Numbered from the stretch's first letter, positions 14,045 through 44,547 are shown. The stretch is DNA of 64,000 nucleotides from a virus (IMGVR_UViG_3300026184_000242:380-64379), one strand, 5' to 3'. The notes: generated by a model not told the origin, from the sequence alone. Made by a program: numbers and translations.

Positions 14045-15121
14045 TTAGGACACGGTGCCGTTGTTTTGGGCTTCGCGGATCGCACTTTCGTGTTGCGCAA
14101 ACTCCTGATCCGTCATGCGTCCCAGCGCGTAATCCCGGTACACCTGCGCAATGCGGTCCCGGGTGTAGTGCGGGGGCTGGTTCGGCGCTTCGCCGGCCCG
14201 GGTTTCACCGGGGGCGATTTTGCGCTCCAGCTCCTGCTGGCGCTCCTGCGAACGGCGCTCCTTCTCTGCTTCCGGGTTCGGCTGATTGCTTTCCTGGTGC
14301 GAAGGCGGAGCCTGCCCGGTGGAAGCCTTGTAGGAAGTGAAGAACTGCGCCGCCCGATTGGCGTCCAGGTCCTGCCGGGCCTGGTTGAGTAACTGGATCA
14401 TGGGCTGTCCGGAAAGCGGCTCGACCTGCTGGAGCCACTGGATGAAGCCCGGATCCTCATTAAGCCGCTGCCAATCAGGAACCTCCCTCGCCAGCGCCTC
14501 GAAGAACTCCTGCTCCTGGTCCCGTTCCCGGCTCTGGGCCACGTCCTGCACCTGCGTCTTGAGCTGGGCCAGTTCGTCGGCAAGCGTCTGGTTCCGCTGC
14601 TGCATGGTGCTCAGGAGGTTCTCCTGATCACGGAACGGCTTGACGAACTCGGGCCCGTAGGTGTTCTCCAGGACCTGTAGGGACTCCTCCAGGTTGGAGG
14701 TGTCCAGGTTCGGGGCTTCGGTCGGCGTCTGGGATTCCTGCTCACGGTCGCCCTTGAGCTGCTCCATCTGCTCCTGGAGGTCCTGCATCTGCTGACGGGA
14801 CTGCTGGAGCTGCTGGTGGAGCTGCGGGACCTCGGACTGGTATTTGCCCTCCATGACCTCGAAGCGCCGCTTCCAATACTCGGCGTCCGTTTCCTGGGAG
14901 GGCGTCTCTACCGGCGTAGACGGCGTAGACGGCGTACCAGCCTCCGGCGTTGCCGTTGCTTCTGCCGGGGTGGCCGGGGTCTGCTCCGTGGGCGTTGCGC
15001 TGGGCGGAGTTTGGTTCTCCTCTGCGGTTGGGGTTTCATGCTGCGCGTCGGCCTCCGTCCACTTTTTCATCAGCTCGTCGGCACGTTCGGCCTGTCGGCG
15101 CACCTGCTCGGGAATAGCCAT
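14045..15121 (-). CDS. Capsid scaffolding protein
   Basis: 358 aa, acidic and coiled-coil, VPDWQRLNEDPGFIQWL; lies between portal and capsid genes. Confidence 0.75.
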   Translation of the reverse strand: MAIPEQVRRQAERADELMKKWTEADAQHETPTAEENQTPPSATPTEQTPATPAEATATPEAGTPSTPSTPVETPSQETDAEYWKRRFEVMEGKYQSEVPQLHQQLQQSRQQMQDLQEQMEQLKGDREQESQTPTEAPNLDTSNLEESLQVLENTYGPEFVKPFRDQENLLSTMQQRNQTLADELAQLKTQVQDVAQSRERDQEQEFFEALAREVPDWQRLNEDPGFIQWLQQVEPLSGQPMIQLLNQARQDLDANRAAQFFTSYKASTGQAPPSHQESNQPNPEAEKERRSQERQQELERKIAPGETRAGEAPNQPPHYTRDRIAQVYRDYALGRMTDQEFAQHESAIREAQNNGTVS

Positions 15122-15272
15122 TCAAACGTCCTTCCTGCTTTGCCGGGATTCACAGCACAAACGCCCCCATTCCCGAGCCGGCGGAGCGGGATTCGGGCGG
15201 GGGTTGGTTCGCGTTATGAGCCGGGGGTCAGGGTAGATATACCGGTCGGGAGCCGGCGCTGCGGGATTCCCG

Positions 15273-15515
15273 TTACCGGCTGCGATACCGCTGGAGGATC
15301 TCTCCAGCCTGCTCCTTGTGCTCCAGGAGCGATTTCAGGGCCCAAAGGGCCCCCTGGTTCCGGCGGAACGACGTCTCCTCCTGGATGCTGTCGTTCTGCT
15401 CACGGATCTGCTGGATGGAGTCGTTCAGCCACTCCACCACCACCTTGAAGTCCCCGTTGGCCTGGAGGCGCTTGAGGGCTTCCGCCTGGCGTTCGGTGGG
15501 CTTGGCCAGTTTCAT
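15273..15515 (-). CDS. Small head-assembly protein (Bbp19-like)
   Basis: 80 aa with RRNQG motif, between portal and scaffold. Confidence 0.55.
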   Translation of the reverse strand: MKLAKPTERQAEALKRLQANGDFKVVVEWLNDSIQQIREQNDSIQEETSFRRNQGALWALKSLLEHKEQAGEILQRYRSR

Positions 15516-15817
15516 GCGCTAGTCACCAGGGTGACCGTCACCATCTCCCCGTTACCCGATGTGTTGGTCAGGTTGGCCCGCACGTAGGCGAAGGGGGCCG
15601 CGTCCGTGAAGGTGTCGGCTCCGTTGCTGGTGGTGATGTTGTTGAACGTGTGGAGGCTCACCCACGGGCCGTCCCGGAGGTTGGAAACCTCGATGTCCAC
15701 GTCCACGTTCGGGCTGGTGGTGCCGTCCACGTAGAGGTGGAAGGCGCGGTGGGCCTCCTCGGTGCGGACCGCGTTCCCGGGGCCCACCGCCGTGGCCTGA
15801 TCTAGTAGGTAGAACAT
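15512..15817 (-). CDS. Small virion protein
   Basis: 101 aa beta-sandwich-like (IEVSN...WV...YVRANL). Confidence 0.5.
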   Translation of the reverse strand: MFYLLDQATAVGPGNAVRTEEAHRAFHLYVDGTTSPNVDVDIEVSNLRDGPWVSLHTFNNITTSNGADTFTDAAPFAYVRANLTNTSGNGEMVTVTLVTSA

Positions 15818-15820
15818 CGT

Positions 15821-17935
15821 TTACCCCTGCTGGTGCTCGGGCCCGCCAGCCGGCGAACCATCTGGGTTGGTTTTCTGCGGCGCGGCCTGGCTCGGCCCCT
15901 GCTGACCCGGTGCCTCCTGGCCCGTGCCCTGGCCGGGCGGGACCTGCTGGCCCTGGGCCATGGCCATGCGCCGTTGAATGGCCTCCTCGCGGCGGATCTC
16001 GTCGGGATCGGGGACTACTTCGTCCACGTCCACGTTGAGGTGTTTGGCGGCCTCGCGCAGGAGGGCGGCGCGTCCGGCGCGTCCGATGATGCTCATGTCG
16101 AACTCGTTGGTGGTCGCCTTGAGGAACTCGTTGCGCCGCGTGTTCTCCTGCTCGCGGGCCACCAGGGACTGGCTGCCCTGCGCCTGGACGGACAGGTCGC
16201 CCTTAATGGACTCGTCGTCCAGGTACAGCATGTTGTGCAGATACTGGCGGAACACCGTGGTTTCCACCAGGCCCACGTCGATATGGGCGATCACCCGGCG
16301 GATGCCCTTGGACGTCTGCTGGAGGAGCATATGGAGCCCGGAGGCCGTGTCGGCGGCTCCGCCCATGTCGGACTGGCCGTAGGCGTAGGCCGGGATCCCC
16401 GTGTAGTCGTCGGCCAGGCGGGCGTAGTAGTCGTAGATCGACATAAGCTCCTTGGCCAGGGAGTTGGGCTGGAAGAACTCCACCGGGGGGCGGTGGCTGC
16501 TGGCCACGGCGCTGTCGCCCTCGAACTGCCAGACCTTCCATGGATACAGTGCTGTCACCTGCTCGCCGGCCGGGATCCGGTTAATGTCGTTGATCGCAAC
16601 CTGGGGCCCGGACGCTATGCCCATGTTGTTGGCAAGGGCGCGGGCGGCGGCGTTGCACATGGCCTGGGTGTCGCGCATCAGCTCCGAGACGCCCTTCCCC
16701 CAGAAGGCCCCGGGGATCACCTCGTAGCTGGCCTTGGACAGGGGCCGGGCCGGAACCGGGTCGTCCGCCACCACCGCCTTGATCACCCAGGAGCCGATCA
16801 GCCAGGCCTCCACCTCGTACTGCCGGGAGGGGTTTTCCACCTTCAAGCCCCACTCGGCCAGGTCCTGTCCGGAGGCGGGGCCGAAATACTGGAGCGCCTC
16901 GATCTTGTCCGAGTTCTGGTAGTAGAAGCCCTGGTCCCGCTCCTCGATCTCGCGGCGCTGCTGGTCGATGGCCACGTATTCGTGGTAGCCCTTGTTGTTG
17001 TACTCCTCCAGCACCGCGCGGATGGCCTCGTCGTCGTATCCCTCCACCCCGATCATGGCCTCCAGGTCATGGCGGGACAGCCGGTGGCGGCGGAACAGGT
17101 AGGAGTCGTCCACGTCCACGGCGTCGGGGGCCGGGTAGATGTCGAAGGGGGAGACGCGCTCATACTCCAGGGTGTGCTCCTCCTCGACCTTCGGCTGGTA
17201 ACCACCAGGGCCCTGCTCCCAGCGGAGCTTGCGCTTGCGGCGCACGATAGGCCCGGCGACAAAGCCGGCCTTCGAGGTCACCACGTCCGAAATGGCTTCG
17301 TCCATGGCCGCCCGCCACTTCCCCTCCAGGAACTGGTCCGCGATGGTGTGCTCCATGCGCTGGGCAATCTCCTGGGCCTGGTCCTTGACCTCCTTCTCGA
17401 TCTCCTGACGGACCTCCTGGGCTCGTTCGTGGATCTGCTGGGGGGTCATAGGGGCCCCCATCATTTCCTCTTGCTGGGCGGCCTCCATGCCCACCTGATG
17501 GCCGATCCGCTGCTCCATGTCCGGGGGCAGCTCCGGCTCCGGGGACGGCTTCAAGGACCACGGGTTGGCGTCGGCCGGCAGCATGACGTCCCGGATCCAG
17601 GCCTCGGCGGCCCGGCACTTCACCGACGTCAGCATCATGTAGATTTCCGAGCCGCCCTGCTTCCGGATCTCCGCCAGCTTGTCCGGGTCGTACTCCCCGT
17701 TGCGCTGGCGGTAGTCCCGGAGCATTTCCTGCTCGATCTCGCGCTTGGCGTTCTTGGCCGTCTCCCACTTGCGCCGCATTTCCCCAGCCAGGGCCAGGAT
17801 ATGGGGCTGGGACTGGCGCTGCTCGGCCAGCTCGCGCTCGGAGCGCCGGGCCTCCAGCTCGTCGTTGGGGACCAAGCGCATATAGCTGATGGAGGCACCG
17901 CCGGTCTGGTTGTTCTGGGGCGTCATTGCGGTCAT
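15821..17935 (-). CDS. Portal protein
   Basis: 704 aa; VSPFDIYPAP, GAFWGKGV, IASGPQV, ADDYTGIPAY...TASGLHML. Confidence 0.88.
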   Translation of the reverse strand: MTAMTPQNNQTGGASISYMRLVPNDELEARRSERELAEQRQSQPHILALAGEMRRKWETAKNAKREIEQEMLRDYRQRNGEYDPDKLAEIRKQGGSEIYMMLTSVKCRAAEAWIRDVMLPADANPWSLKPSPEPELPPDMEQRIGHQVGMEAAQQEEMMGAPMTPQQIHERAQEVRQEIEKEVKDQAQEIAQRMEHTIADQFLEGKWRAAMDEAISDVVTSKAGFVAGPIVRRKRKLRWEQGPGGYQPKVEEEHTLEYERVSPFDIYPAPDAVDVDDSYLFRRHRLSRHDLEAMIGVEGYDDEAIRAVLEEYNNKGYHEYVAIDQQRREIEERDQGFYYQNSDKIEALQYFGPASGQDLAEWGLKVENPSRQYEVEAWLIGSWVIKAVVADDPVPARPLSKASYEVIPGAFWGKGVSELMRDTQAMCNAAARALANNMGIASGPQVAINDINRIPAGEQVTALYPWKVWQFEGDSAVASSHRPPVEFFQPNSLAKELMSIYDYYARLADDYTGIPAYAYGQSDMGGAADTASGLHMLLQQTSKGIRRVIAHIDVGLVETTVFRQYLHNMLYLDDESIKGDLSVQAQGSQSLVAREQENTRRNEFLKATTNEFDMSIIGRAGRAALLREAAKHLNVDVDEVVPDPDEIRREEAIQRRMAMAQGQQVPPGQGTGQEAPGQQGPSQAAPQKTNPDGSPAGGPEHQQG

Positions 17936-17945
17936 GGCGAATCCC

Positions 17946-18263
17946 TTACTGCGTTAGGCGGTGCAGGGCCTTGGAAATAGAGTCGTGGCGGTGATCTTCG
18001 AGCCGGTCCCGGACGTCCACCAGGAGGTTCTCCAGGTAGGGCCGGCCCTTGCGGATCAGGGTGGGGACGTCCAGCTCCACCTCCACCAGCTTGTCGTCCC
18101 ACGACACCAGCCGGTATTTGATCCGGCCCTCGCGGGTGTTCTTGCCCACCAGGACCTCGATCCCCTTGGCGTTCTCGCGGGGCAGCTTGCCGGTGGCGGC
18201 GAAAACCGACAGGGCATCCACCATCTGCCGGTTCAGCTCGGAGACGTCGATCTCGGTTTTCAA
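17946..18263 (-). CDS. Hypothetical protein
   Basis: TTG start overlapping the upstream stop; tightly packed operon. Confidence 0.5.
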   Translation of the reverse strand: MKTEIDVSELNRQMVDALSVFAATGKLPRENAKGIEVLVGKNTREGRIKYRLVSWDDKLVEVELDVPTLIRKGRPYLENLLVDVRDRLEDHRHDSISKALHRLTQ

Positions 18264-18481
18264 TGCAGCTCCCCCAAGTCCTCGTCGTCCTCCTCCCCCA
18301 GGAACTCGAAAAGCTCCCCCATGCAGATCCGGAGGCCATCCTGGGTAATGTCGGAGTACAGCACGGTGGACACCCCCAGGCCATCCACCTCCAGGCGCAC
18401 CTCCCATCCTTCCTCGAACGGGATCACCTGGGGCTGCGGGAACTCCCGGGCAAAGGTCTGACGGATCTCGTCGGTGGTCAC
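18260..18481 (-). CDS. Hypothetical acidic protein
   Basis: 73 aa, coupled to neighbours. Confidence 0.5.
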   Translation of the reverse strand: MTTDEIRQTFAREFPQPQVIPFEEGWEVRLEVDGLGVSTVLYSDITQDGLRICMGELFEFLGEEDDEDLGELH

Positions 18482-18669
18482 TTTTTCTTTCCCTCGTTCG
18501 CCATGGCCTTGCGGGCGTGTTGGGCCCCCTTGGACGTCAGCTCCAGGTGCTTACCGTTCTGCTTCATCCAGCCCCGGTCCTTGGCGATGGCGATGGCCTC
18601 GGACTTGGACATGCGCTTGCCGCCGCTGCGGATGGCGCGGAGCAGGGCTTCCTCCCCCTTGTCGCTCAT
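18478..18669 (-). CDS. Hypothetical basic protein
   Basis: ATG at 18669 with AGGAG RBS (MSDKGEEALLRAIR...). Confidence 0.5.
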   Translation of the reverse strand: MSDKGEEALLRAIRSGGKRMSKSEAIAIAKDRGWMKQNGKHLELTSKGAQHARKAMANEGKKK

Positions 18670-18840
18670 GGTCAGCTCCTGTAGGTGCGGGGCGGGATCA
18701 CCCGCGCCGGCTTCTTGCAGTAAGGGCAGGCCAGATACCGGTCGGTCTTGCGCACTACCCAGGTCGCCCTCCACTGACAGTGGGGGCAGACCAGGGCCCG
18801 GACCGTCCATTGGTTTGACGACGGGGCCGTTTCTGGCATG

Positions 18841-19056
18841 TCACTGTTCCCTGGCGAACCCGGCCTGCATGAGTTCCACCACGCTCTGGAAGTCCTCGGT
18901 GGTCATGGAGGGCAGCTCCTCCGGATCGACCCACCACTTGGCCACCTTGGTGGACCCGGTCGGATGCACCAGGAAGCGGACCCGGCCCTGCTGGAACCAA
19001 AACCAGGATTGCCCGAAGGTTGTGCGCAGAATCTCGTTGGCTTGTTGGGCGTCCAT
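18841..19056 (-). CDS. Hypothetical protein
   Basis: ATG overlaps the terL TAA. Confidence 0.5.
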   Translation of the reverse strand: MDAQQANEILRTTFGQSWFWFQQGRVRFLVHPTGSTKVAKWWVDPEELPSMTTEDFQSVVELMQAGFAREQ

Positions 19057-21356
19057 TACGTCCATCCTTTGGCTGAGGGCACCACGATCTGGCGCGGTGC
19101 TCGATGTTTTGGCCCGAAGGTATGCGCCGAGGCCAGTACCTGGAATGCGTCCGCGCCGTGGGAGGCCCAATCATGGCGCGGCTGGTTTTTCCAGGTCCCG
19201 CGCTTGTCGTCCCACTCCTTGCGGTACGCGGCCAGCACCCCCAGCCCCTCCTGGCAATGTTCCTCGTCAAAATAGCAATACCCCAGGAAGTTGCGGGCGG
19301 CCTGGATGGCGTCCTCCTTGCGGTCGGGCCGGTTGGCGATCTCGAAGTGGATGCCAAGCTGCGCCGCTGTCTCCCAGCGGCTTTTCCCCGTCCCCATTTC
19401 CCGGACGGCGATGTCATGCGGCGCGGTATGGGTACCGTAGCGCCAGCCCCGCTCCCGCGCCTTCTGGTGGAGCATGTCGATGTAGTAGGGGATACCCTCT
19501 CCGGAGTCCTCGAAGTAGTCCACCACCCACACCTCGCGCCCCACCGTCTGCGTAAACCAGATCGCGGTGGAGTCCCCCACCCCCAGGTCCCACCACGTAT
19601 CCACGGATACCGCCTTCTCCGGCGTGATCCGCGTCACCCGCCCCTCCTGACGGGCCTCCGAAAGCTGGCGGGCGAAGTACGCGCCGTACAGGGTCGCCTG
19701 GAACGCCTCCTCCGGCGTGGACGGATGCTCCTTGAGCATATCTTTGCCCTGCTGCTTCTCCTTGAGCACGTACCAGGCCTTTTGCCGAGCATCCAGCTCG
19801 ATCCCGTACTCCTTGGCCAGCCGGTCGAAGTAATCCTGCAACCGCTGGCCGATCACCACCCGGTTCGCCTCCTCCGCCGTCAACCGGTACGAAGGCTCCT
19901 TCCACCAGGGGTAGAAGTGGAACTCCATATCCAGCCGGGTCAGCGGCCGGTCCTGCTCCTGACGCTCCTGGGCCGCCATGGCCATGTCATAGAACACGCC
20001 CTCCTGGCCCTCCGCCGTGGACTCCACCCACACCATCCCGGACTGGGGCACCGCCTCCAACGACCCGCTTTTGATCTCCTGGGCCTTGTCCGGATGCTTG
20101 GCCGCCAGCCTCCCATACTCCGATATATGCAGGAGCTGGACCGTCCCCGACCGGGCGGAAGTTGTCACGCGGATCGAAGATCCGTTCTCGAAAACCAGCT
20201 CGGCGGATTGCTCCGTCTCCGTCACCCGCGCCTGCTGGAGCGCCTCCGGCAGGTTGTCATACGGGAACTTCACCTTCTCCCGGAAGATCCGGCCGGCATC
20301 CTCCAGGGTATGGGCGATGATCGCCGCCGACACGTGGTTGTTGAACAAGCACGTATCCAGGATGAACAGGTCGATGAAGGTGGTGTTGTGGGAGACGAAC
20401 CCTTCCGCGATGTACGTGCCCACGTCCGTCTGGAGGTCAATGAGCGTCTGTTCCCCCAGCTCCTCGATGGATTCGATCCGACTCCAGCCTATCCTGCCAT
20501 TGCGCTTCCCGGGCAGCTCGCGGCCCTCCCAGAAACGGTCGCCAAGGAAGCGGCTGGGGCGGGTCTGCCCGACCAGGCGGAACAGCTCGTCCATCCGGCC
20601 CATGGCCAGCTTGGGCACCGGGTTGGCCCCGAACCGGCTGGGGCGGTCGTTGTCGTCCTCGATCCGGTAGTGGTAGCCATGGGCGTCCAGGTAATCGACC
20701 ATCCGATCCCAGACCGCGCCCTCGCGCTGCGCCACCGTCACTCCGGCCGACGTATTGCCGTTGGCGATGGAGCCTTCCCCGTCGAGCATCCCGCCGAACC
20801 AGCCGTCCTCGGCCTCGGGGGCGTCCCACGGGCGGGTGACCCAGCGCACGTAGGTCCCCGGGGTGAGCTTCTTCTTGTTGTCGGATTCGATGGTCCGCCA
20901 GTCCGTGCCGGTCCCGGCCTTCTTGGAAAGCCAGGGGTGCTTGCCGGTGCAGACCACCGACCGGCCATCGTCGAAGGTAATTCGATACGCCTTTCGGTAC
21001 ACCTCGACCACACCCTGGACGGTGGCGGTCCGCATTTTGCGGGCCCGCCCGCGCCCGCCAGGCGGGTATTCGTCCACCGACACGATCTGCTGGCCCGGTT
21101 CCAGGTCGGCGATCTGGACCCATTGCAGCTCGGCCGTCAGGACCCGGGTGCTTGGGTCCAGGCAGAACCCAATCTGCCGCGCCTTCAAGATCAGGTTCCG
21201 GTACCACATGGACCGGTACAGGTCCGCCTGGGCCCAATTCGCCCGGAACGGCACCACGTTCGAGTCCCGGTCCACCACCTTGTATAGCCGGTTAAGCCGC
21301 GCCCACTGATTGCGTAGAAGCTGCCGCGACAGCTCCCGCTCCTTCGCCTCGGCCAT
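19056..21356 (-). CDS. terL: Terminase large subunit (intein-containing)
   Basis: LKARQIGF/TT Walker A, LHISE Walker B, VESTAEG, WDLGVGDSTAIW, HDWASHGADAF nuclease motifs; ATG at 21356 with GGAGG. Confidence 0.93.
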   Translation of the reverse strand: MAEAKERELSRQLLRNQWARLNRLYKVVDRDSNVVPFRANWAQADLYRSMWYRNLILKARQIGFCLDPSTRVLTAELQWVQIADLEPGQQIVSVDEYPPGGRGRARKMRTATVQGVVEVYRKAYRITFDDGRSVVCTGKHPWLSKKAGTGTDWRTIESDNKKKLTPGTYVRWVTRPWDAPEAEDGWFGGMLDGEGSIANGNTSAGVTVAQREGAVWDRMVDYLDAHGYHYRIEDDNDRPSRFGANPVPKLAMGRMDELFRLVGQTRPSRFLGDRFWEGRELPGKRNGRIGWSRIESIEELGEQTLIDLQTDVGTYIAEGFVSHNTTFIDLFILDTCLFNNHVSAAIIAHTLEDAGRIFREKVKFPYDNLPEALQQARVTETEQSAELVFENGSSIRVTTSARSGTVQLLHISEYGRLAAKHPDKAQEIKSGSLEAVPQSGMVWVESTAEGQEGVFYDMAMAAQERQEQDRPLTRLDMEFHFYPWWKEPSYRLTAEEANRVVIGQRLQDYFDRLAKEYGIELDARQKAWYVLKEKQQGKDMLKEHPSTPEEAFQATLYGAYFARQLSEARQEGRVTRITPEKAVSVDTWWDLGVGDSTAIWFTQTVGREVWVVDYFEDSGEGIPYYIDMLHQKARERGWRYGTHTAPHDIAVREMGTGKSRWETAAQLGIHFEIANRPDRKEDAIQAARNFLGYCYFDEEHCQEGLGVLAAYRKEWDDKRGTWKNQPRHDWASHGADAFQVLASAHTFGPKHRAPRQIVVPSAKGWT
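20385..21164 (-). mobile_element. Intein (260 aa) with LAGLIDADG-like motif
   Basis: Starts CLDPSTRV, has block B CTGKHPW, GGMLDGEGS and C-terminal YIAEGFVSHN, followed by +1 Thr. Confidence 0.92.
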
Positions 21357-21404
21357 AACACCTCCACCACCAGGTGGGTCCTCCTGGACCCCCCGGCACG
21401 AGCT

Positions 21405-21658
21405 GGGGCCCCATGAGCTTGTCGTGGGGCCCCATAGAACCTTGCAACCCCCATGGGATACTGCCCCCCGAGGCCATCGCACTAGAGGACTGAATCAATG
21501 GGACTTTTAACTTTGCTACTTCTGTGCAGCGGGGCCCCTATTTTTGGGTCCTACTGGGAGTCCCGGGCTTTATGGGGCCCCTTGGGATTTTGGCGATTGT
21601 TCGGGGGGAGAACCTGACTGGAGCGGTCCACCCCCCCGGCCCCCGGGGGTGGGGCCCC
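21405..21658. repeat. Five GGGGCCCC palindromes upstream of terL
   Basis: Copies at 21405, 21426, 21531, 21574 and 21651. Confidence 0.7.
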
Positions 21659-21781
21659 TCTGAGGGGGTGCCCCCTGGGGGGTCGCCTGCGCGGGCGCGC
21701 GGACGGCCAGGACGCCCACGCGGACGCCGCTACGCAAGGTTTTCCCCTTGAGAATCAAGGAGATACCCCGCGAACCCCAAC

Positions 21782-21809
21782 ATTGCGCGTAACGTCCATT
21801 ATGTTAAAA
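21782..21809 (+). other. dif: dif-like XerC/XerD recombination site
   Basis: ATTGCGCGTAA-CGTCCA-TTATGTTAAAA versus E. coli GGTGCGCATAA-TGTATA-TTATGTTAAAT (8/11 and 10/11 arm matches, 6-bp spacer). Confidence 0.8.
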
Positions 21810-22103
21810 GCAGCCGGGAACGCGCATAACTCCGGGCCTTGTCCCTGGCGCATTGTGCGCCCTGTCACGCCCTTCATCCGCCACGCCAGGGCAGGGACAC
21901 CAGGACCGAGCCAAGCTCCACGCACAGGGCCACCTGGGCCGCGAGAACCCCATCCTCGTACGGGACTTCCCCTAGTCCAGTAGGGACTAGCACCACTACC
22001 ACCCAAGAATCAACCGGATATACGCGCCGTCTCCGACCGTGCGACAAAGTCCCTGACGGTGGCTGCCAAGCGGTACGGCGACCACCAGGGCACCCCAGCC
22101 CCT

Positions 22104-22300
22104 CGCAGCTCCCCGCATGAGCGCGATTGCGAGCGCGATTGCGAGCGATTGCGAGCGATTGCGAGCGTGAGCGAGCGCAGCTCCCCGCGTGAGTGCGTGA
22201 GCGTGAGCGAGTGCGGCTGCCCGCGTAAGCGCATGAGCGCGATTGCGAGCGCGAGCGTGAGCGCGATTGCAAGTGCGCGTGAGCGAGCCTGCGAGCGCAT
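22104..22300. repeat. Degenerate GCGAGCG(CG)ATT / GCGTGAGC tandem repeat tract
   Basis: About 200 bp of 6-12-bp units in a non-coding divergent region. Confidence 0.85.
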
Positions 22301-22577
22301 GGGGGGGGGTGCCGCCCTTCTCGGGTTGCATGACGGCCGGGCCAGTCTTTGGCGGGTGCCTTGGTCGAGACTACACCCCGGGGTTCGGGCTGCTCATTCA
22401 CAACCTGTTACGAGTCGCCCCCTATCCTCGACGAACGGCTAACAGCGGGGGAGGTGGGGGCGAGGCTGCCGCCGGGCTCCACCAGGACGGAGAGGCTGGC
22501 GAGCGCGTTTATCGTCTTGCCCCCTCGCGCAGGGGGCAGGCGCGATAAACACGCCAACCACAGTAGGAGGAAGCGCC

Positions 22578-22841
22578 ATGCCTAGCCCGTACCAATCTGT
22601 TGAGGTTGTCCCTTACCACGTCTGGGTCCACCAGCCTACGGGGAGACAGGCGAGCATCCACGGGGCCGCCCCCTGGACCAGCGAGACCGACAAGAAGAAC
22701 TGGACACGCAAGCGCCGGGGGTGGACGTGGCGATCCTGGATGATGTCGGGGAGGACTTCGGGGTCCTGTACGGGGACCGGGCCGAGCGGGCTATCGAGAA
22801 GGCCACGAGCAGCGCAAAGGGCCCAACTGGTGGGCCCTTGA
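22578..22841 (+). CDS. Hypothetical early protein (possibly chimeric)
   Basis: AGGAGG RBS; first gene of the plus-strand cassette. Confidence 0.45.
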   Translation: MPSPYQSVEVVPYHVWVHQPTGRQASIHGAAPWTSETDKKNWTRKRRGWTWRSWMMSGRTSGSCTGTGPSGLSRRPRAAQRAQLVGP

Positions 22842-22875
22842 CGGTGCCCACCAACAGCAACCACAGGAGTGGGAA

Positions 22876-23652
22876 ATGAGTGAGTACCCCAAAACCGCAA
22901 GGGAAATCTGGCATGCCCTGCGCCGGGCGAGCACAAAGCGGTACGTGATCTATGCACCAACGGGTGAGCCTACCCGAACCGAGTATCGCCGCGTAACGAA
23001 CGGCGCCTACGTGCCGTATATCCGGGTCAAGCGGGGCAAGGCGGGCCTGCGCGATTTCCTGGCTCACCAGCTCCTGGAGCGCAACCGCTGGCTGGACTGG
23101 CCCCGGCCACAATCGCTAGAGGCCCGCCTTAATGCTTATCTGGTGACAAAGGGCCTCCGGATCATCAACCAGCGCGGGCTATCCACCCCGGCGGGCTGGG
23201 GCCCTGCCCGGGTCCAAGTCCGGGACCACCAGCCCGGGCTAACGCTAATCGCGGGGGAGTACGAGTACAAGTACTCTCGCCGGGCGGGCTCCTGGCGGGT
23301 CGGTGGAGCCTACCTGTTCGGCACGGATGATGCCGGGGAGTGGGCAATCCGGGTTCCCCGCGACACAAAAACGATCCGGTCGGCCCTGGCGTGGGCCACC
23401 CCGGCAAAGGTTCTTGAGGCGGAGCGGGAAGGCCGCGACGTCCGACGCCAGGGCGACGTCTTTTTCGTACCGCTCAAGCGGGGCGGGTCCAATTTCCAGG
23501 CCTTGACCGCACAACGGCACGAGGTCCGCCAGCGGCGCGACGGGGGCTATACCGTGGTCCACCCCGAGCACCGGCCCCTCCGCCTGCCTCGCGGAGCGTG
23601 GCGGGCATATATGATGCGCCAGGATGCCGCCCACGGGGGCGGCGGAGACTAA
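22876..23652 (+). CDS. Hypothetical early protein
   Basis: 258 aa, AGGAG RBS; C-terminal RQGDVFFVP...HPEHRPLRLP motif. Confidence 0.65.
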   Translation: MSEYPKTAREIWHALRRASTKRYVIYAPTGEPTRTEYRRVTNGAYVPYIRVKRGKAGLRDFLAHQLLERNRWLDWPRPQSLEARLNAYLVTKGLRIINQRGLSTPAGWGPARVQVRDHQPGLTLIAGEYEYKYSRRAGSWRVGGAYLFGTDDAGEWAIRVPRDTKTIRSALAWATPAKVLEAEREGRDVRRQGDVFFVPLKRGGSNFQALTAQRHEVRQRRDGGYTVVHPEHRPLRLPRGAWRAYMMRQDAAHGGGGD

Positions 23653-23742
23653 CACCAACCGGGTCCGGGTTGCCTACCGCCGCCTGTGGGGCATTACCAA
23701 ATCACCAGCCTAGTTCCCATTTCCGAGCTATAGGAGAACGCC

Positions 23743-23991
23743 GTGAAGGACGCCAACAACCGAAACACCCCCGGCGAGCAGGCTTACCGCGCCGCCTACG
23801 CGCAGGACCTGCATGCGCTATGCACTATGGACCGCCAGGAACTGAACGCCGGGCTCCGTATCGCCAAGCAGCGGCAGCGGGATCCGAGCGCGGCAACGCG
23901 GCGACAGGGGGCCGGAGCTGCCCGCACCTTGGCCCACCTGCTATCCCTGCAATCACGCCAGCCGGTCCAGGACCTGTTAGACCTTGACTAA
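23743..23991 (+). CDS. Hypothetical protein
   Basis: AGGAG RBS, GTG start. Confidence 0.5.
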   Translation: MKDANNRNTPGEQAYRAAYAQDLHALCTMDRQELNAGLRIAKQRQRDPSAATRRQGAGAARTLAHLLSLQSRQPVQDLLDLD

Positions 23992-24075
23992 GGGAGTGCC
24001 ACAGGAAGCCCCCTGCATAGGGGGCTTTGGCTGGGGCAATCCCGCCCCTTTGGACGCCAATCGGAGGACGCACAA

Positions 24076-24303
24076 ATGATCCGTAACCCCATGATTTGGC
24101 ATGGCCGCCGCGCCGCCGCCCGGGAGCTGGCCCGTCTCCGCCAGGAGCTGGAGGAGCTGGCCGTACACTCCGACCCCGTGGCCCGGGAATACTACTGGGA
24201 GGTGGAGGCGGAGTACGTGGAGGCGGAACGGCTGCTCCGCACCATCCAGGAGGGACGGCCCCGTGACCAGTACGAGGCCGCCGAACAAGCAATGGCGCTA
24301 TAG
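24076..24303 (+). CDS. Hypothetical protein
   Basis: GGAGGACGC RBS. Confidence 0.55.
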   Translation: MIRNPMIWHGRRAAARELARLRQELEELAVHSDPVAREYYWEVEAEYVEAERLLRTIQEGRPRDQYEAAEQAMAL

Positions 24304-24312
24304 GAGGCCACC

Positions 24313-24507
24313 ATGCACCGCGAACCCAATGCAGCCGAGCACGTCGGGGCCGTGTTCCTGGTGGCCCTCCTGGCCGCCTGGATTGTGCTCCCTACGGTCT
24401 ATGGGGCTATCTGGATAGCTGCGGACCCGTTCAACCTCCAGGCCTGGGCCTGCGCCCTCGCATGGCCAATCGTATTTGGCCTGGGGGCCCTTTCTACCCA
24501 CGGATAG
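24313..24507 (+). CDS. Small two-TM membrane protein
   Basis: AGGAGG RBS; two hydrophobic segments. Confidence 0.55.
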   Translation: MHREPNAAEHVGAVFLVALLAAWIVLPTVYGAIWIAADPFNLQAWACALAWPIVFGLGALSTHG

Positions 24508-24575
24508 GGGGGGCAGCCGGTAGGGCCTCCGCCTGGAGGCCCTGCATCGGGTGCCACCAACCGAAGGAGGACGCC

Positions 24576-24875
24576 ATGAGCGTTGAATCCCAACGTCTCC
24601 GCCAGGACCCGACCCTTCAATCCATCGGGCGCAAGTTAGGCCAGCACAAAAAGCCGCGCCTGCGGGTACGCCTGCTCCGCGCCGCGTGGAAGGCAGCGGA
24701 ATGGGCATTTATCGCCTTCTGCTACGGCTCCCCGTTCGCCCTGATCTACGTCAACGCCCCCCATATCTCCTGGCTCACGTACTGCTGGGCCGGGGCCTCC
24801 CTGGTGGGGCTAATGCAACAAATGGAGCGGGAACGTCTCGCCCACGTCAACGCCTGGAGGCATCACCATGACTGA
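24576..24875 (+). CDS. Membrane protein
   Basis: GGAGGACGCCATG start; two hydrophobic segments. Confidence 0.5.
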   Translation: MSVESQRLRQDPTLQSIGRKLGQHKKPRLRVRLLRAAWKAAEWAFIAFCYGSPFALIYVNAPHISWLTYCWAGASLVGLMQQMERERLAHVNAWRHHHD

Positions 24876-25362
24876 CCCATCTTGTGCCGACCGTCTCCCC
24901 GAGCATTGGCAATCCACCAGGGACGACTTGGAGACCATCCTGTACCCGGACAAGGCCGACCCCGAGGACCTGGAGGCCCTGGGCCAGGACCCCGAGGACG
25001 CCTCCCTGGCCCGGTACGGCCTGGCCTTCGATTATGTCCCCATGGCCACCTTCTCCGACCAACAGGAGGGTTATTTCCGCTACCAAATCTCTTGGGGCGG
25101 TCCGTCGGACGAAATCCGATTTTACCTGAGCATCGCGGACCGGATGGCCCTACTCCAGGGGAAGCGCAGCTCGATAGAACCCGAAAGCATCGTGTACTGG
25201 TTCATGGATTGGTTCGACGGAGCCAGTAAAGACGTGACCTATGACGAAATCGCCCGCGCCACCTGGCAATGGTTCGCGGACGTGGGGGGCCCCCGCACCG
25301 CCATGCAGGAGGCCGACGTGGGCGAAGGCGAACTCCTGGCCGAAGCCGACGAGGAGGAATAA
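24868..25362 (+). CDS. Acidic early phage protein
   Basis: 164 aa, D/E-rich, YQISWGGPSDEIRF motif. Confidence 0.65.
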   Translation: MTDPSCADRLPEHWQSTRDDLETILYPDKADPEDLEALGQDPEDASLARYGLAFDYVPMATFSDQQEGYFRYQISWGGPSDEIRFYLSIADRMALLQGKRSSIEPESIVYWFMDWFDGASKDVTYDEIARATWQWFADVGGPRTAMQEADVGEGELLAEADEEE

Positions 25363-25460
25363 CCGCCAGGGCGGGCCTATCCGGTCCGCCCCTCTTGTCA
25401 ACCCTGTTACCCCTTGCTAACGTGATAATCACGCCAACCATTCAAGCTCAGGAGCTACCA

Positions 25461-26441
25461 ATGAGCCACGAAATCGCAAGCCGCGCCGACGGACGCGCCG
25501 CCATGGCCTTTACCGGGGATACCCCCTGGCACGGGCTGGGCCACAATCTCACCCCGGGCGCCCCCCTGGAGGACTGGCAGCGGGAGGCGGGCCTGGACTA
25601 TTCCGTCGCCTCCGCCCCTGTCGAGTACCACACCGAGGATGGGGAGCACCGCCGCGCCGCCGGCCAGAAGGTCCTGTATCGTTCCGACAACGCCCAATCC
25701 CTGGCCGTGGTGTCCGACCGGTATCAGGTCCTTCAACCCGGGGACGTGATGGCCTTTTACCGGGACCTGACCGAGGCGCAGGGCTACACGATGGAAACTG
25801 CGGGAGTGCTGAAAGGTGGCCGCCGGGTCTGGGCCCTGGCCCGCGCCCCGCAGGAGGACTTCGCCGTCGGGGGTGATCTCATGCAGGGATATGTCCTGCT
25901 GGCGACCAGCTATGATGGAACCATGGCAACCGTCGCCAGCCACACCACGGTTCGCGTGGTTTGCCACAACACCCTGTCCATGGCCGTCGGGGCCGGGGGC
26001 GAGCGCGGGGATATTAAGATCCCGCACAACACCTCGTTCGACGCCGACGCCGTCAAGGCCCGCCTCGGGCTGCGCCCGGATCTGGTTGCGCGGTTCCAGG
26101 AGAACGCCGAGGCCATGGCCCGGAAGCAGGTTTCCAAGGACGCTGCCGTCCGGTTCTTCCTGAATGTCTACTATCCGGACCAGGAAACCTTGGAGGTCAC
26201 CCGCGCCGTCAATCGCCGCCTGGAGGAGCTGGTGACCCTGTGGAACACCGCGCCCGGCCAGGAGACGGACGCTGCCCGGGGCACCGCCTGGGGCCTGCTC
26301 AACGCGGTCACCTACCACACCGACCACGCAAGGAACACCCGGACCCAGGAGAACCGCCTAGAGGCCGCATGGTTCGGGACCGGGGCAACCACCAAGGCCA
26401 GGGCTGCCTTCGAGGCTCGCAAGCTCGCGGAGGTCGCCTAA
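25461..26441 (+). CDS. DUF932/DUF945 (TIGR03299-like) phage/plasmid protein
   Basis: TPWHGLG, ETAGVLKGGRRVWALA, TSYDG, VRVVCHNTL, GTAWGLLNAVT. Confidence 0.88.
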   Translation: MSHEIASRADGRAAMAFTGDTPWHGLGHNLTPGAPLEDWQREAGLDYSVASAPVEYHTEDGEHRRAAGQKVLYRSDNAQSLAVVSDRYQVLQPGDVMAFYRDLTEAQGYTMETAGVLKGGRRVWALARAPQEDFAVGGDLMQGYVLLATSYDGTMATVASHTTVRVVCHNTLSMAVGAGGERGDIKIPHNTSFDADAVKARLGLRPDLVARFQENAEAMARKQVSKDAAVRFFLNVYYPDQETLEVTRAVNRRLEELVTLWNTAPGQETDAARGTAWGLLNAVTYHTDHARNTRTQENRLEAAWFGTGATTKARAAFEARKLAEVA

Positions 26442-26450
26442 GCCCAACGG

Positions 26451-26476
26451 GCCCGGGGTTCGCCCCGGGCCTTCTT
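26451..26476 (+). terminator. Hairpin / terminator after the DUF932 gene
   Basis: GGCCCGGGG-TTCG-CCCCGGGCC followed by TTCTT. Confidence 0.5.
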
Positions 26477-26583
26477 GTGTCTGGAGGACGCCATGATTCC
26501 CCTAATCCTTTTTGCCCCGCTTGGTATCGGGGCCGTCGGAGGGGCCGTCGCCGCCGCCGTCGAGAACGTTACCGGAGGACGCC

Positions 26584-27003
26584 ATGAGACGCGCAAACAT
26601 CCTGCTGCCCCTGGCCCTGGCCGCCTGCGGGCCTATTCACCCCCGGACGGTACGCCGGGAGGGGGCTTACCTCGCCGTCCAGGCTACGGACTGGAGGCAG
26701 TCCCGGACCATCGCCGCGCACCCGGACCGGTTCCAGGAGGCCAACCGGGTCTTGGGCAACCATCCGAGCCGGGCCGCCGTTGACCGGTATTTCCTGGCCG
26801 CGTCCCTGCTGCATGCCGGGGCCGTTGCCGCGCTGCCGGATACCTACCGGGCCCGCTTTCAGTGGCTCTCCCTGTCCCTGGAGGCGTCCTGCATTGCCAT
26901 GAACGCCCAGGATGGGGCCGGGGGCCCGCGAATCGGGTATAACCACCCGGTGGGCTACTCCGTCGCCCACGTATCCGGACGGTTTCACGGACTCACGCAC
27001 TAG
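26584..27003 (+). CDS. Putative lipoprotein / membrane protein
   Basis: GGAGGACGCCATG start; MRRANILLPLALAA-C lipobox; EANRVLG motif. Confidence 0.5.
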   Translation: MRRANILLPLALAACGPIHPRTVRREGAYLAVQATDWRQSRTIAAHPDRFQEANRVLGNHPSRAAVDRYFLAASLLHAGAVAALPDTYRARFQWLSLSLEASCIAMNAQDGAGGPRIGYNHPVGYSVAHVSGRFHGLTH

Positions 27004-27017
27004 TAGGAGGTTGCGCA

Positions 27018-27215
27018 ATGCCCAACACCACCCAGGAGAAGCCCACCATCCCCGGCCCCGACACCGTGGAGACGCCGTTCCAGGTATTGATTACCGCCTC
27101 CCGCGCCCTGCTCAACCGGGGCGAATCCGTGCGGGCTGCGGAAATGCAGGATCGGGTATACGAGGATCCGGAACGGGCCCTGGAGATCATGCAGGAGTAC
27201 GTACGCTTCCGATGA
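27018..27215 (+). CDS. Hypothetical protein
   Basis: AGGAGG RBS, 65 aa. Confidence 0.55.
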   Translation: MPNTTQEKPTIPGPDTVETPFQVLITASRALLNRGESVRAAEMQDRVYEDPERALEIMQEYVRFR

Positions 27216-27433
27216 ACTACGAGGTCACCTATTTCCAGCTAGGCGGGCCGAGCGACTACCCGGAACCGTGCCATTCCTACGAGGAGGCGGATCTGGTGGC
27301 TCGCAAGGCCCGCGATTCCTACCTGTACGCCCACCCGGGCAAAGGACTCCGAGGACGCCACCACAAAGACAAATACCAAGCGGTACGCCCGGATGGCACC
27401 GTGGAGTTCCAAGCCTGGGTATCCCTTTTTTAG
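27212..27433 (+). CDS. Hypothetical protein
   Basis: ATGA overlap (MNYEVTYF...). Confidence 0.5.
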   Translation: MNYEVTYFQLGGPSDYPEPCHSYEEADLVARKARDSYLYAHPGKGLRGRHHKDKYQAVRPDGTVEFQAWVSLF

Positions 27434-27442
27434 GAGGCAGCA

Positions 27443-27895
27443 ATGACCCAAGTTATCGGCTCGATCAGCACCGGCACCCAACGCCCCCAGGACCTGATCC
27501 CAACCTTCCTGGAGGAGCTGGGGGAGCGGGACACCGAACGCTATCAATCCGAGCTGGAGTATATCGGCGCGAGCAGCCCGGTGGACCTGCCCGAAGATTC
27601 CAACCCCTGGTGGAGCGGGGATAAGCCTCCGGAGGTCCTGGAGCGCCTCCAGGAAGCCTTAAACAACACCGCCCCGCCGTATTGCTACTTCGGCCCCCAC
27701 GAGGGAGACAACTCGGACTACGGATTCTGGCCAGACCTGGAGCAGGCTGCCGAGGAGCTGCCTACCTTCACCGACCCCGGGCTCCTGGATGAAGCCGATT
27801 CCAACGCCGCCGTAGTGGTCAATGACCACGGCAACATGACCCTCTATTCCCGGGATCCGTCCGGGGAATGGCAGGAGGTATGGGCCATCGTCTGA
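27443..27895 (+). CDS. Acidic early phage protein
   Basis: SISTGTQRPQDLIPTF...PPYCYFGPHEGDNSDYGFW...NDHGN. Confidence 0.65.
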   Translation: MTQVIGSISTGTQRPQDLIPTFLEELGERDTERYQSELEYIGASSPVDLPEDSNPWWSGDKPPEVLERLQEALNNTAPPYCYFGPHEGDNSDYGFWPDLEQAAEELPTFTDPGLLDEADSNAAVVVNDHGNMTLYSRDPSGEWQEVWAIV

Positions 27896-27980
27896 CGCCT
27901 TGAGCGGGCTTGTGCGGGGATTTTTGGTTGACCCCTAGCTTCCCCCTACGGGCCCACCTGAAAACGCTTTGGAGGACGCC

Positions 27981-28472
27981 ATGGAAAGCCAAAACAAAAA
28001 CGGACGAGTTAAGTTCGTGGACCTTGCCGAGGAGCTGGGCCTGGAGTTTGACACGGAGCGCGTCGATCCCCCGGAGGCGCAGGGCCTGCCCGAAGGGGTG
28101 ACCCCCGTCCTGGCCCATATCACCCGGCAGGGCTGCTCCGGAACCCTGTCCCTGGTGATCGGGTCACCCTCCGAGGAGACGGTACCGCCGGAGGCTATCC
28201 TTGCGGGCCTGGGGATGCAGCTCCTGATGTACCACCAGATGCAGGACTGGGCCGATTTTGTCTCCCGCTTCTGGGAGCCTTCCAGCGGGGCGGATGGGCT
28301 GCGCGAGGGGTCCAAGGCCTTCGACACGCTCGCCCAACAGGACCGCCTGGCCCGGCTCCTGCTGGGCAATTACGGGGTCCGTAAGCTCCTGGCCCTGGCC
28401 AATTCCGACGTTCACTCCGAGGTCAAGAAGGAGGGAACGGAGGTGCCTGCGACGAACCGGTCCCTGCATTGA
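27981..28472 (+). CDS. Hypothetical protein
   Basis: GGAGGACGCCATG start. Confidence 0.55.
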   Translation: MESQNKNGRVKFVDLAEELGLEFDTERVDPPEAQGLPEGVTPVLAHITRQGCSGTLSLVIGSPSEETVPPEAILAGLGMQLLMYHQMQDWADFVSRFWEPSSGADGLREGSKAFDTLAQQDRLARLLLGNYGVRKLLALANSDVHSEVKKEGTEVPATNRSLH

Positions 28473-28759
28473 CCGCCGCCGAGCTACCCGGCGAGCTGTC
28501 CCTGCCCGGGATGGCTCGCCGCATCGGCTGCCCATCCTGGGAGGTGGCCCGGCTGCGGCTGGGCTACCACCTGGAGGTGCCGGACTGGCAGGAGCCGATC
28601 CTTGTGGAGGAGATCCAGGGGATGGTTTTCTGTCGCCTGGAGGCCCCACCCTGCTTCCTGCCCCGGCTGAATTTCCCGGCCACCCGGGCCATCCGCCCGG
28701 AGCAGATGGCCTATCCGCCCATACGTGCCCTTTTCGATCACGTACCCATCGGGGCCTAG
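28469..28759 (+). CDS. Hypothetical protein
   Basis: TTGA overlap with the upstream stop. Confidence 0.45.
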   Translation: MTAAELPGELSLPGMARRIGCPSWEVARLRLGYHLEVPDWQEPILVEEIQGMVFCRLEAPPCFLPRLNFPATRAIRPEQMAYPPIRALFDHVPIGA

Positions 28760-28774
28760 CCCCAAGGAGTAGAA

Positions 28775-28987
28775 ATGGCAACGCTGCGCCGGTCCCACCC
28801 GGACTCCTACCACGTGCTTAACGATGCCGGGGAGGTTACCGGCAAATGCGAATGGGGCCGCCAGGGGCAATGGCTCGGATGGCGGCTCACTATCACCCAC
28901 CGCAACCGGACCCACCAATATACCCGCCAGAACCTGGAGCAGATCAAGGCCATCCTCCAGGACCTGGAACGGGAAGGGTTCCTGTAG
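28775..28987 (+). CDS. Hypothetical protein
   Basis: AAGGAG RBS. Confidence 0.5.
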   Translation: MATLRRSHPDSYHVLNDAGEVTGKCEWGRQGQWLGWRLTITHRNRTHQYTRQNLEQIKAILQDLEREGFL

Positions 28988-28996
28988 GAGCCAGCC

Positions 28997-29245
28997 ATGG
29001 CGGAATACTGGACGTGCCCCGGCCAGGAGTACGTGGTCCACACCGTCACCAATGTCCAGGGCGGAATCCTGTTCAACCCCCATTTCCTGGGCTACCTGAC
29101 CATGGCCTTGTCCCTGGCCATCACCGTGCTCGCCGCCTGGGCCTACCGGGTCGGACGGCGGCGCGGCTGGCAGGAAGCCCACGGCCTGTTGCCCCCCGAG
29201 CAGCCCACCCTCAAAAAGGACCCGCATTCGGACGAATCCGATTAG
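28997..29245 (+). CDS. Small membrane protein
   Basis: AGGAG RBS, one TM segment; converges on terS. Confidence 0.5.
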   Translation: MAEYWTCPGQEYVVHTVTNVQGGILFNPHFLGYLTMALSLAITVLAAWAYRVGRRRGWQEAHGLLPPEQPTLKKDPHSDESD

Positions 29246-29820
29246 TCCTGCCCTTCCTCCTCCTGCCCGTCCTGGCCCTCCAGGGCGGGCGGGCTCACCA
29301 GCTCGCCATCTTCCGTCACGTCCGAAAAGGACCCGTCGAGCGTGGAACGCTCCCGCGGGGGGGCCATGGTCTCCCCCGAAATCTCACTCAGGAGACTCCG
29401 GAGGGAGTCGTCCGCCCCCACGCTGACATTCACTTGCCGGTCGAACCCCCCCGTATAGCGCCCGATGGCCTCCAGGGCCTTGGCCGCTCCGGAGCTGTCG
29501 AACCGGTACTCCCCGAGGAAATTGCCCTTCTTGTCCCGGACGGGGACCTCCTGAACGCACCGTTCGTACAGGGCCATCCATTTGCGCAGGACCCAGTCCG
29601 AGTCGATCCCCACGCTCTGGGTGATCTCCTCCAGGAGCCGATCAACCTCCTTGCGGACGGCCGGCTTGCGCAGCAGCTCGTACGATACGTTGCGGGCCAT
29701 TTTCTTGGAGTATCCCGCCTCCAGCGCCGCCTTTTTTGCGTCGAAGTCTCGCACGTAGTAGCGGGCGAACGCTTTCTGCTTCGGGGTCAGCCCGTTTCTT
29801 GGATTGATCTTGTTGGGCAT
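29242..29820 (-). CDS. terS: Terminase small subunit
   Basis: LTPKQKAFARYYVRDFDAKKAALEAGYSKKMA...LLRKP...KALEAIGRYTGGF (Terminase_2-like). Confidence 0.88.
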   Translation of the reverse strand: MPNKINPRNGLTPKQKAFARYYVRDFDAKKAALEAGYSKKMARNVSYELLRKPAVRKEVDRLLEEITQSVGIDSDWVLRKWMALYERCVQEVPVRDKKGNFLGEYRFDSSGAAKALEAIGRYTGGFDRQVNVSVGADDSLRSLLSEISGETMAPPRERSTLDGSFSDVTEDGELVSPPALEGQDGQEEEGQD

Positions 29821-44142: not shown

Positions 44143-44547
44143 GTGTCGGATTATCCATCCGTGCGTTCCCTGATGTCCCGTTTTCCGAATCCGGTCCGTG
44201 CTCGTCATGGGACTAAACGTAACCGGTATTGCGTGGGTGGGGCGTTACTTATCGCCCTGGAGGAGCGGGAAGATAGCCGGAGGCTGTCTTTCCCCTCTTA
44301 CTCCGAGCTTGGCATGGAGTTCCAAAAGGTGAACCCAGGGCTATCCCCGGTTCGGGCCCATTCACTGGCCGATGAGCTGGTCGATGCCAACGACCGGGGC
44401 CAGTTTAATGAGGCCTGGGGGATCCTGGCCGAGGTCTTGGGGGAATCCAAGCCCGTCCCGCGCTCCAAGTCCCTGGTACCCATCGAGCCCGAGCCCGTCG
44501 AGCCGGTGCGGATCGAGCTGGAGCAGAAAGAACCAGCCCTTGTCTAG
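44143..44547 (+). CDS. Hypothetical protein (YCVGGAL...ND motif)
   Basis: AAGGAG RBS, GTG start. Confidence 0.55.
   Translation: MSDYPSVRSLMSRFPNPVRARHGTKRNRYCVGGALLIALEEREDSRRLSFPSYSELGMEFQKVNPGLSPVRAHSLADELVDANDRGQFNEAWGILAEVLGESKPVPRSKSLVPIEPEPVEPVRIELEQKEPALV

Follow-up and report, generated by a model that had tools for sequence, protein, structure and literature searches.

Why does a tailed phage with no apparent integrase carry, next to its large terminase gene, a sequence resembling the bacterial dif site? Xer sites are textbook features of chromosomes, plasmids and small integrating phages, and to our knowledge they are not known for large lytic-looking tailed phages. The locus belongs to an uncultured soil phage that, judging from its sequence, is a tailed podophage related to the Bcep22/GP4-like group. 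It is represented by a 64,379-bp IMG/VR virus record (IMGVR_UViG_3300026184_000242), classed as linear and estimated by CheckV to be 84% complete; the window, that is, the whole stretch of DNA analysed, comprises bases 380-64379 of this record (64,000 nucleotides, 65% G+C). An earlier note on this DNA had described the site and considered three uses for it: integration at the host dif, resolution of multimers as an episome, or action of Xer/FtsK near the packaging site.

Sequence of the core and its chance level

Sequence and position of the 11-6-11 site proposed in the earlier note, and of the extra arm described below, were exactly confirmed in the window. The core is made up of three parts:

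21782-21792, + strand, XerC-type arm ATTGCGCGTAA
21793-21798, + strand, 6-bp central region CGTCCA
21799-21809, + strand, XerD-type arm TTATGTTAAAA

The layout is that of two 11-bp arms around a 6-bp spacer, with an inner ..GTAA / TTATG.. symmetry. The first 10 of the 11 bases of the XerD arm are those of the E. coli dif XerD arm, the outermost base alone being different, and the arm likewise matches the conserved TTATGTTAAAT at 10/11 positions; the outermost position of the XerD arm is described as variable in the text consulted of PMC2731167. The XerC arm falls within the range of natural sites, being identical at 8/11 positions to the E. coli chromosomal arm, at 10/11 to the arm found in Pseudomonas mucoides, and at 11/11 to that of a Hydrogenophaga MAG. 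In each of the latter two genomes the arm belongs to the sole RTAA-N6-TTATGTTAAA site, which is therefore probably dif. The uncommon G at arm position 8 recurs in both of these candidate dif sites, and it alternates with A in a family of IMG/VR phages of about 35 kb described below. The pattern TTGCGCGTAA-N6-TTATGTTAAA matched five of about 185,000 species genomes. Rosenbergiella metrosideri has two cores on separate contigs: a canonical one of the dif type, and CTTGCGCGTAA CGTCGA TTATGTTAAA, which is identical to the phage site at 25/28 positions.

Both strands of the window were scored against the Thiobacillus denitrificans dif site as printed in Table 1 of PMC2731167. The phage site was the single best place, with 18/22 arm positions and 21/28 positions overall, and one other place reached 14 or more arm positions. 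When 64 kb of sequence was simulated 300 times with a first-order Markov model, the top arm score ranged from 13 to 17 (17 once) and never reached 18, while the top 28-nt score was at most 19. Taken alone, the XerD arm is weak evidence: TTATGTTAAA with up to one mismatch occurs once in the window, but at least one match was also obtained in 23 of 100 shuffles. The presence of both arms at the correct spacing, however, is not weak evidence and is beyond chance. The 28-mer contains 18 A/T and ranks in the top 0.1% of the window's 28-mers, in agreement with the description of an AT-rich site in a GC-rich genome. Layout, arm matches and simulations all bear out the proposal of a dif-like XerCD site; the sequence is a real Xer-type core site, at which XerC and XerD are predicted to bind.

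A second dif-like site that might pair with this one for inversion of the rightward block (22.3-29.2 kb) was also considered and rejected, the other TTATGNNAA contexts having no XerC-like arm. The viral scan for GCGCRTAASGTCCATTATGTTAAA returned no matches.

Genome context and the gene-free gap beside terL

Genes were mapped by third-position G+C gene calling combined with PHROGs and Pfam scans, and the main features are as follows:

1614-3434, leftward late operon, internal virion protein
13019-13945, leftward late operon, major head protein
15821-17935, leftward late operon (with terL), portal
19056-21354, - strand, terL
22578-29245, rightward block of small genes, including DUF932
29242-29820, - strand, terS (phrog_51, E 3.6e-27), in a leftward block, 7.4 kb from the site
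same leftward block as terS: helicase, primase, HNH
rightward block: RecE-like, RecT-like, SSB, AAA/NACHT ATPase and TROVE/Ro60-like protein
44372-45742, + strand, early region, AAA/NACHT-type NTPase domain protein, 456 aa
46719-48086, + strand, TROVE/Ro60-like protein with a vWA domain (Pfam TROVE, E 4.5e-12; phrog_850, 'RNA-binding protein')
50335-60795, leftward, DarB-like protein, 3,486 aa

ATG 21354 is the most likely start of terL; it opens MAEAKERE after GGAGG, and relatives align from there. The open frame itself reaches 21482. TerL has a long frame, of 808 aa when read as open and about 765 aa when counted from the likely start; its residues 153-366 gave a weak Intein_splicing match (E 1.4e-4, below the Pfam cut-off), and some IMG/VR TerL relatives gave matches about 1,080 aa long, which suggests a TerL family with intein-type insertions. 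No tRNA or tmRNA was found in the 64-kb window.

At each end of the record the contig stops within leftward genes for structural proteins, in the interval separating the head side from the DarB side. The late operon of BcepIL02 extends from terL by way of the tail fibres as far as DarB, past which lie integrase, RecT-like and cI-like genes. From the position of the contig ends and this synteny, the missing part would most likely lie within the structural operon; the early region of the record is then most likely complete, with the break inside that operon.

The earlier note had placed the site upstream of terL, and it is indeed located in a gap of about 1.2 kb adjoining this gene, together with an additional arm and several families of repeats:

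21355-22577, no strand, gene-free gap of about 1.2 kb, from the leftward terL to the first convincing rightward gene
21405-21658, no strand, five-copy cluster of GGGGCCCC palindromes (254 bp; 5 of the 11 window copies)
21492-22020, + strand, three same-strand copies of GAATCAA-N4-A(T/C)(A/T), at 21492, 21752 and 22007
21819-21829, + strand, orphan XerC-like half-site AACGCGCATAA, in the same orientation as the first arm and 9 nt from the core
22104-22312, no strand, iteron-like tandem arrays of GCGATTGCGA(GC) and GTGAGC units

The first convincing rightward gene starts at ATG 22578 after AGGAGG. All ORFs within the gap are of low complexity and low third-position G+C, none of them being credible, and the gap had no Pfam match. 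No match was obtained with Rfam at E<=1 on 21000-23000, and a promoter/terminator scan of 21300-22300 gave 0 sites, with no sigma-70 promoter. The gap around the site is probably a packaging and/or replication control region of the phage.

The extra arm is probably not a product of chance, since the top strand of the window has a single GCGCATAA, at 21822, which is 13 nt past the XerD arm (the bottom strand also has a single copy, at 59084). It is regarded as an orphan half-site because no XerD-like partner lies 6-8 nt downstream. The GAATCAA-type copies are spaced 260 and 255 bp apart and the middle one ends 17 nt before the XerC arm; three of the four top-strand GAATCAA copies in the window fall in the gap. 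The IHF consensus WATCAANNNNTTR was not matched anywhere in the window; the TTR part is missing from all three GAATCAA motifs. The KOPS-like word GGGNAGGG occurs 5 times on the top strand of the window and 12 times on the bottom strand (1 top and 2 bottom to the left of the site; 4 top and 10 bottom to the right), with no convergent or usable polarity around the site in the 64-kb window.

Absence of the site from relatives of the phage

A blastn search with 19000-24000 gave matches in terL only, at 64-71% identity, to Ralstonia phages GP4, Gervaise and others, to the Burkholderia phages of Lessievirus (BcepIL02, DC1 and JC1), and to some Pseudomonas phages. In the text consulted of PMC9144972, the JC1 group is described as podoviruses with a giant DarB-like virion protein; JC1 itself has terminally redundant, circularly permuted DNA, which led the authors to infer that the group packages by headful, and it has a serine recombinase and a repressor.

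Among 39 IMG/VR loci related through TerL (30-57% identity in the best segment), a two-armed site was found, within the DNA available, in one, L025, of low G+C and 37% TerL identity, where the sequence 1.3 kb upstream of terL reads TGGGTAGATAA TATATA TTATGTCAAC. It may represent a separate instance of such a site, or a chance occurrence in AT-rich DNA. TAA-N6-TTATG was absent from the complete genomes of BcepIL02 and GP4. In view of these absences, the site is not a feature of the clade; it is a sporadic acquisition among distant relatives, and could be a recent passenger. Lack of conservation in related phages had been named in the earlier note as evidence against the site. Such lack was found here, but for distant relatives alone, with TerL at most 57% identical.

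The public runs in which the region was found amounted to one, labelled soil metagenome and available as assembled contigs, from which the record itself may derive. Depth of the Logan contigs drops from about 76 (15000-20430) to about 55 (21150-29000), and a minor contig of depth 7 diverges near 21150-21250. The depth step near 21150-21250 is probably a mosaic boundary between strains sharing a structural module, mixed strains being the simplest explanation.

These observations bear on the view that the site is a functionless passenger from another phage or a plasmid, or else an AT-rich promoter or operator that happens to resemble dif. This would account for its absence from all relatives examined and for its position at the mosaic boundary, where depth falls from ~76 to ~55 near 21150-21180 and the variant contig diverges; moreover, an AT-rich island between divergent genes is often a promoter. 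Nevertheless, this explanation is unlikely, given that the score of the site is above chance, that no sigma-70-type promoter was matched, that the orphan XerC-like arm provides another Xer-type feature at a distance of 9 nt, and that selection maintains sites of this kind in other phage lineages.

Similar cores in other phages

A 40-nt query around the site matched 20 of 50,697 GenBank phage records. The closest were two Ralstonia Autographiviridae, RpY2 and p2106, with the core ATTGCGCATAA GGTCCA TTATGTTAAAT, identical to the site at 25/28 positions (5/6 in the centre, GGTCCA vs CGTCCA). Since the flanks are unrelated, only the core is common to these phages and the one studied here. In RpY2, a lytic T7-like phage, both record ends bear an exact 236-bp repeat, with the core at its positions 129-156; in p2106 the core is close to the end of the record, about 650 bp beyond terL. 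A comparable arrangement was found in Pseudomonas phage vB_PpS_SYP (linear, 107,173 bp), which has GTTACCCATAA CGTACA TTATGTTAAAT in both of its exact 351-bp terminal repeats. In phage EKP1 the core is located 28 nt before the terminase gene, and in Escherichia phage Av-05 a 1.9-kb gap lacking annotation contains the two arms of E. coli dif, with the centre CGTGTA instead of the chromosomal TGTATA.

The centre CGTCCA itself was found in Yersinia phage vB_YpM_39, a circular 49-kb record in which a gene annotated as HigB2 adjoins the site. A scan for RTAACGTCCATTATGTTAAA identified 39 metagenome contigs carrying a CGTCCA-centred core with the XerD arm, none of them from relatives of the phage studied here. 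About 40 nt of flank on each side is shared with the vB_YpM_39 site by 19 of these 39 contigs; by its sequence, the vB_YpM_39-type site is a widespread phage- or plasmid-borne Xer module.

With the E. coli dif 40-mer as query, 274 of the 50,697 GenBank phage records matched at E<=1. The matches listed included the expected integrating elements (CTXphi, TLC, microviruses, phiLf2) as well as many lytic phages (Vequintavirinae, CR3-like and Rheinheimera phages). Several of the listed sites were no more than ~1.3 kb from the start of their record, and in some records two places matched.

The centre ends in CA, by the XerD arm, in this phage as well as in RpY2, p2106, vB_PpS_SYP, EKP1 and vB_YpM_39, that is, in 6 of the 7 phage sites tabulated outside the ~35-kb family, the exception being Av-05 (TA). 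The chromosomal centres examined (TGTATA, TGTGTA, TCTATA, and TTTATC as printed for R. solanacearum) have TA or TC as their last two bases. With the terminal-repeat phage sites the present one shares Xer-type arms and a 6-bp centre that closes with CA. The 11-6-11 layout is shared with chromosomal dif, the target of XerC, XerD and FtsK (described by Carnoy and Roten, 2009, in the parts consulted of PMC2731167). Unlike dif, the site is on a phage and not at a replication terminus, has CGTCCA in place of a TGTATA-type centre, shows no KOPS polarity, and is accompanied by an orphan XerC-like arm.

A conserved, invertible core in an unrelated family of phages

The pattern TTGCGCGTAA-N6-TTATGTTAAA also retrieved six IMG/VR contigs, all belonging to one family of about 35 kb and 55% G+C that has no proteins in common with the phage studied here. 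The core is located between terS and terL in this family, and three complete members have a tyrosine integrase of their own 9-10 kb from it. The family was re-sampled by the terS protein alone, yielding 23 loci with 64-100% identity, of which three were left out for having less than 140 nt of DNA after terS. All 20 testable loci had the core, at a distance of 154-177 nt after terS. Its XerD arm does not vary between members, and the XerC arm occurs in a few variants, with both GTAA and ATAA. The centre takes 10 different forms, always 6 bp long and with CA as the last two bases (20/20 members). Moreover, in 6 of the 20 members the 28-bp core is inverted in place between flanks that remain collinear. 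The arms are kept while the centres vary and the core flips, which indicates selection on the arms, independent of neighbours and orientation. This is what selection for XerC/XerD binding would be expected to look like. An IHF-consensus-like AAATCAATGACTTA was also observed about 25 nt upstream of the core in this family, as were GCCGTGGAAC repeats and a C-run/G-run hairpin around it.

Conserved arms around a centre that is free to vary would also fit binding without recombination, the site acting as a decoy that occupies the dimer-resolution machinery of the host, as an FtsK stop, or as a landmark for end protection or packaging; its location beside packaging genes in several phages agrees with such a role. 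However, the 6-bp spacing and the CA-ending centres (20/20 in the family, 6/7 elsewhere) suggest constraint at the cleavage positions, and presence in both copies of direct terminal repeats is what recombination would require of its substrate. Binding alone is accordingly a very unlikely function.

Lysogeny, integration and host

The entire record of 64,379 bp, searched in six frames, yielded neither a tyrosine recombinase (PF00589, Phage_integrase) nor a serine recombinase (PF00239, Resolvase), which upholds, for a record estimated to be 84% complete, the view of an integrase-less tailed phage. The same searches detected no XafT (DUF3653, PF12375), no ParB_N (PF02195) and no repressor of the HTH_3 type (PF01381). 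PHROGs and Pfam scans of roughly 60 ORFs gave no repressor or partition match and no plasmid Rep or Par family, and the ORFs flanking the site had no family match.

The earlier note had assigned the host, by the XerD arm, to the proteobacteria and probably to the gamma class. Within the text consulted of PMC2731167, the same arm is printed for beta-proteobacterial dif sites. Being common to both classes, the arm cannot place the host, and the nearest isolates, by terL as well as by the site, infect Ralstonia and Burkholderia; the gamma assignment is not supported. A host among the Burkholderiaceae is suggested by three features: the relatives found through terL, the twin site of the RpY2 type and the G+C content of 65%.

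Lysogeny of the IMEX type, in which the site would be an attP and host XerCD would integrate the circular genome at the chromosomal dif, would explain a dif-like site in a record with no integrase. Indeed, BcepIL02 has tyrosine recombinase-like and cI-like genes but not the site, so the site could take the place of an integrase, and IMEX are known beyond the filamentous phages (PMC12715192, PMC4471427, as far as consulted). The phages described as exploiting Xer are filamentous, double-jelly-roll or gokushoviruses in the portions consulted of PMC12715192, PMC4471427 and PMC7062461. In the accounts consulted, IMEX phages such as CTXphi, VGJphi, TLCphi, phiRSS0, the dif-type double-jelly-roll phages and gokushoviruses resemble the present phage in having a dif-like site and no integrase, but they are at most about 16 kb, carry a repressor, often have XafT beside attP, and are found integrated at dif. 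Here, by contrast, the phage that carries the site is tailed and no smaller than 64 kb, its record has neither HTH_3 repressor nor XafT/DUF3653, and no integrated copy was found. A portal search of 401 Burkholderiales genomes gave four matches at 27-29% identity and no close prophage; a 16,882-nt contig spans 21150-29000, unbroken at the site and with no junction; and the genome and metagenome core scans yielded no relatives of this phage. Neither those genomes and scans nor the one public run contained a copy at a host dif with hybrid flanks. Furthermore, the sites most similar to it lie within the terminal repeats of lytic phages, the nearest being in a T7-like one, and the centre CGTCCA is of the phage/plasmid type, unlike the chromosomal dif centres examined. 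Integration at dif, one of the three uses first considered, is thus not borne out and is distinctly unlikely.

A second possibility involving long-term carriage is an episomal prophage or carrier state, with the site resolving multimers of a low-copy circular phage plasmid in the manner of cer or psi. Like the sites of ColE1 (cer), pSC101 (psi) and the Acinetobacter pdif plasmids, it is a Xer core with a non-chromosomal centre on a mobile replicon, and plasmids provide its most numerous sequence matches (443 records, mostly Acinetobacter pdif-type and enterobacterial plasmids). The centre and XerC arm of pSC101 psi look particularly similar to those of the phage site. Iteron-like repeats lie 300 bp away, and the circular vB_YpM_39, with its HigB2 gene, has the same centre. 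The cer centre, however, is of 8 bp in the text consulted of PMC5357621, compared with 6 bp here. No maintenance genes were found: the record contains no match to ParB_N, a repressor or a plasmid Rep family. Nor was an accessory-sequence signature recognised (about 180 bp in cer/psi), and flipping of the core with respect to its flanks in the ~35-kb family argues against accessory-dependent sites of the cer type. Episomal maintenance is therefore highly improbable.

A proposed role for host XerC and XerD on phage DNA

The reading that we favour, tentatively and with a confidence approaching even balance, is that the site is used by host XerC/XerD to recombine phage DNA with phage DNA, either circularising terminally redundant DNA or resolving multimers. 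The 28-mer would be the binding and crossover site for XerC and XerD of the host, the phage having no recombinase of its own, and the substrate would be two stretches of phage DNA rather than phage and host chromosome. Two copies could meet in the terminal redundancy of an injected headful, the site being presumed to lie inside that redundancy, or in head-to-tail multimers arising by replication, and recombination between them would release a monomeric circle. The exchange would probably start with XerC, the junction then being resolved by replication or a nuclease. This reading draws on the cores of RpY2 and vB_PpS_SYP, which lie within both exact terminal repeats, and on the terS-linked core of the ~35-kb family. 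Among the uses first considered, a tie between Xer and the packaging or end region fits best, together with multimer resolution, while integration fits poorly. At chromosomal dif, recombination requires FtsK at the septum, according to the text consulted of PMC5357621, a requirement that the phage would have to bypass. The RecE/RecT-like genes of the phage could also circularise terminally redundant DNA independently of Xer.

The proposed logic is the same as that of the P1 Cre-loxP system. In P1, loxP is near the packaging start and is duplicated in the terminal redundancy, and Cre circularises the injected DNA and resolves dimers; P1 has its own recombinase, whereas here it would be that of the host. 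The sites of RpY2 and vB_PpS_SYP share with the present one a gene-free, repeat-rich setting by the packaging genes and the lack of a recombinase, but in those phages the site is held in short exact terminal repeats, while the relatives of this phage are headful and the phage itself is known from assembled contigs.

With somewhat more reserve, the proposal may be extended to many tailed phages that lack lysogeny (T7-like, T5-sized, rV5-like and headful Bcep22-like). These would keep a XerC/XerD site of the mobile-element type in or by the DNA repeated at the virion ends, at which host XerCD would join ends or unlink multimers, in a recombinase-free counterpart of P1 Cre-loxP, and the 28-bp core would be exchanged horizontally by unrelated phages that share a host range, and would flip in place. 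The literature search, in which sources were consulted in part, retrieved no paper on Xer sites in terminal repeats or packaging regions of lytic tailed phages.

If host XerCD does process phage ends or multimers in this way, it would constitute an unrecognised host dependency in phage DNA metabolism, with relevance to host range, phage engineering and genome circularisation. The site would also be a host-linked marker for uncultured phages, which in the present case points to the Burkholderiaceae.
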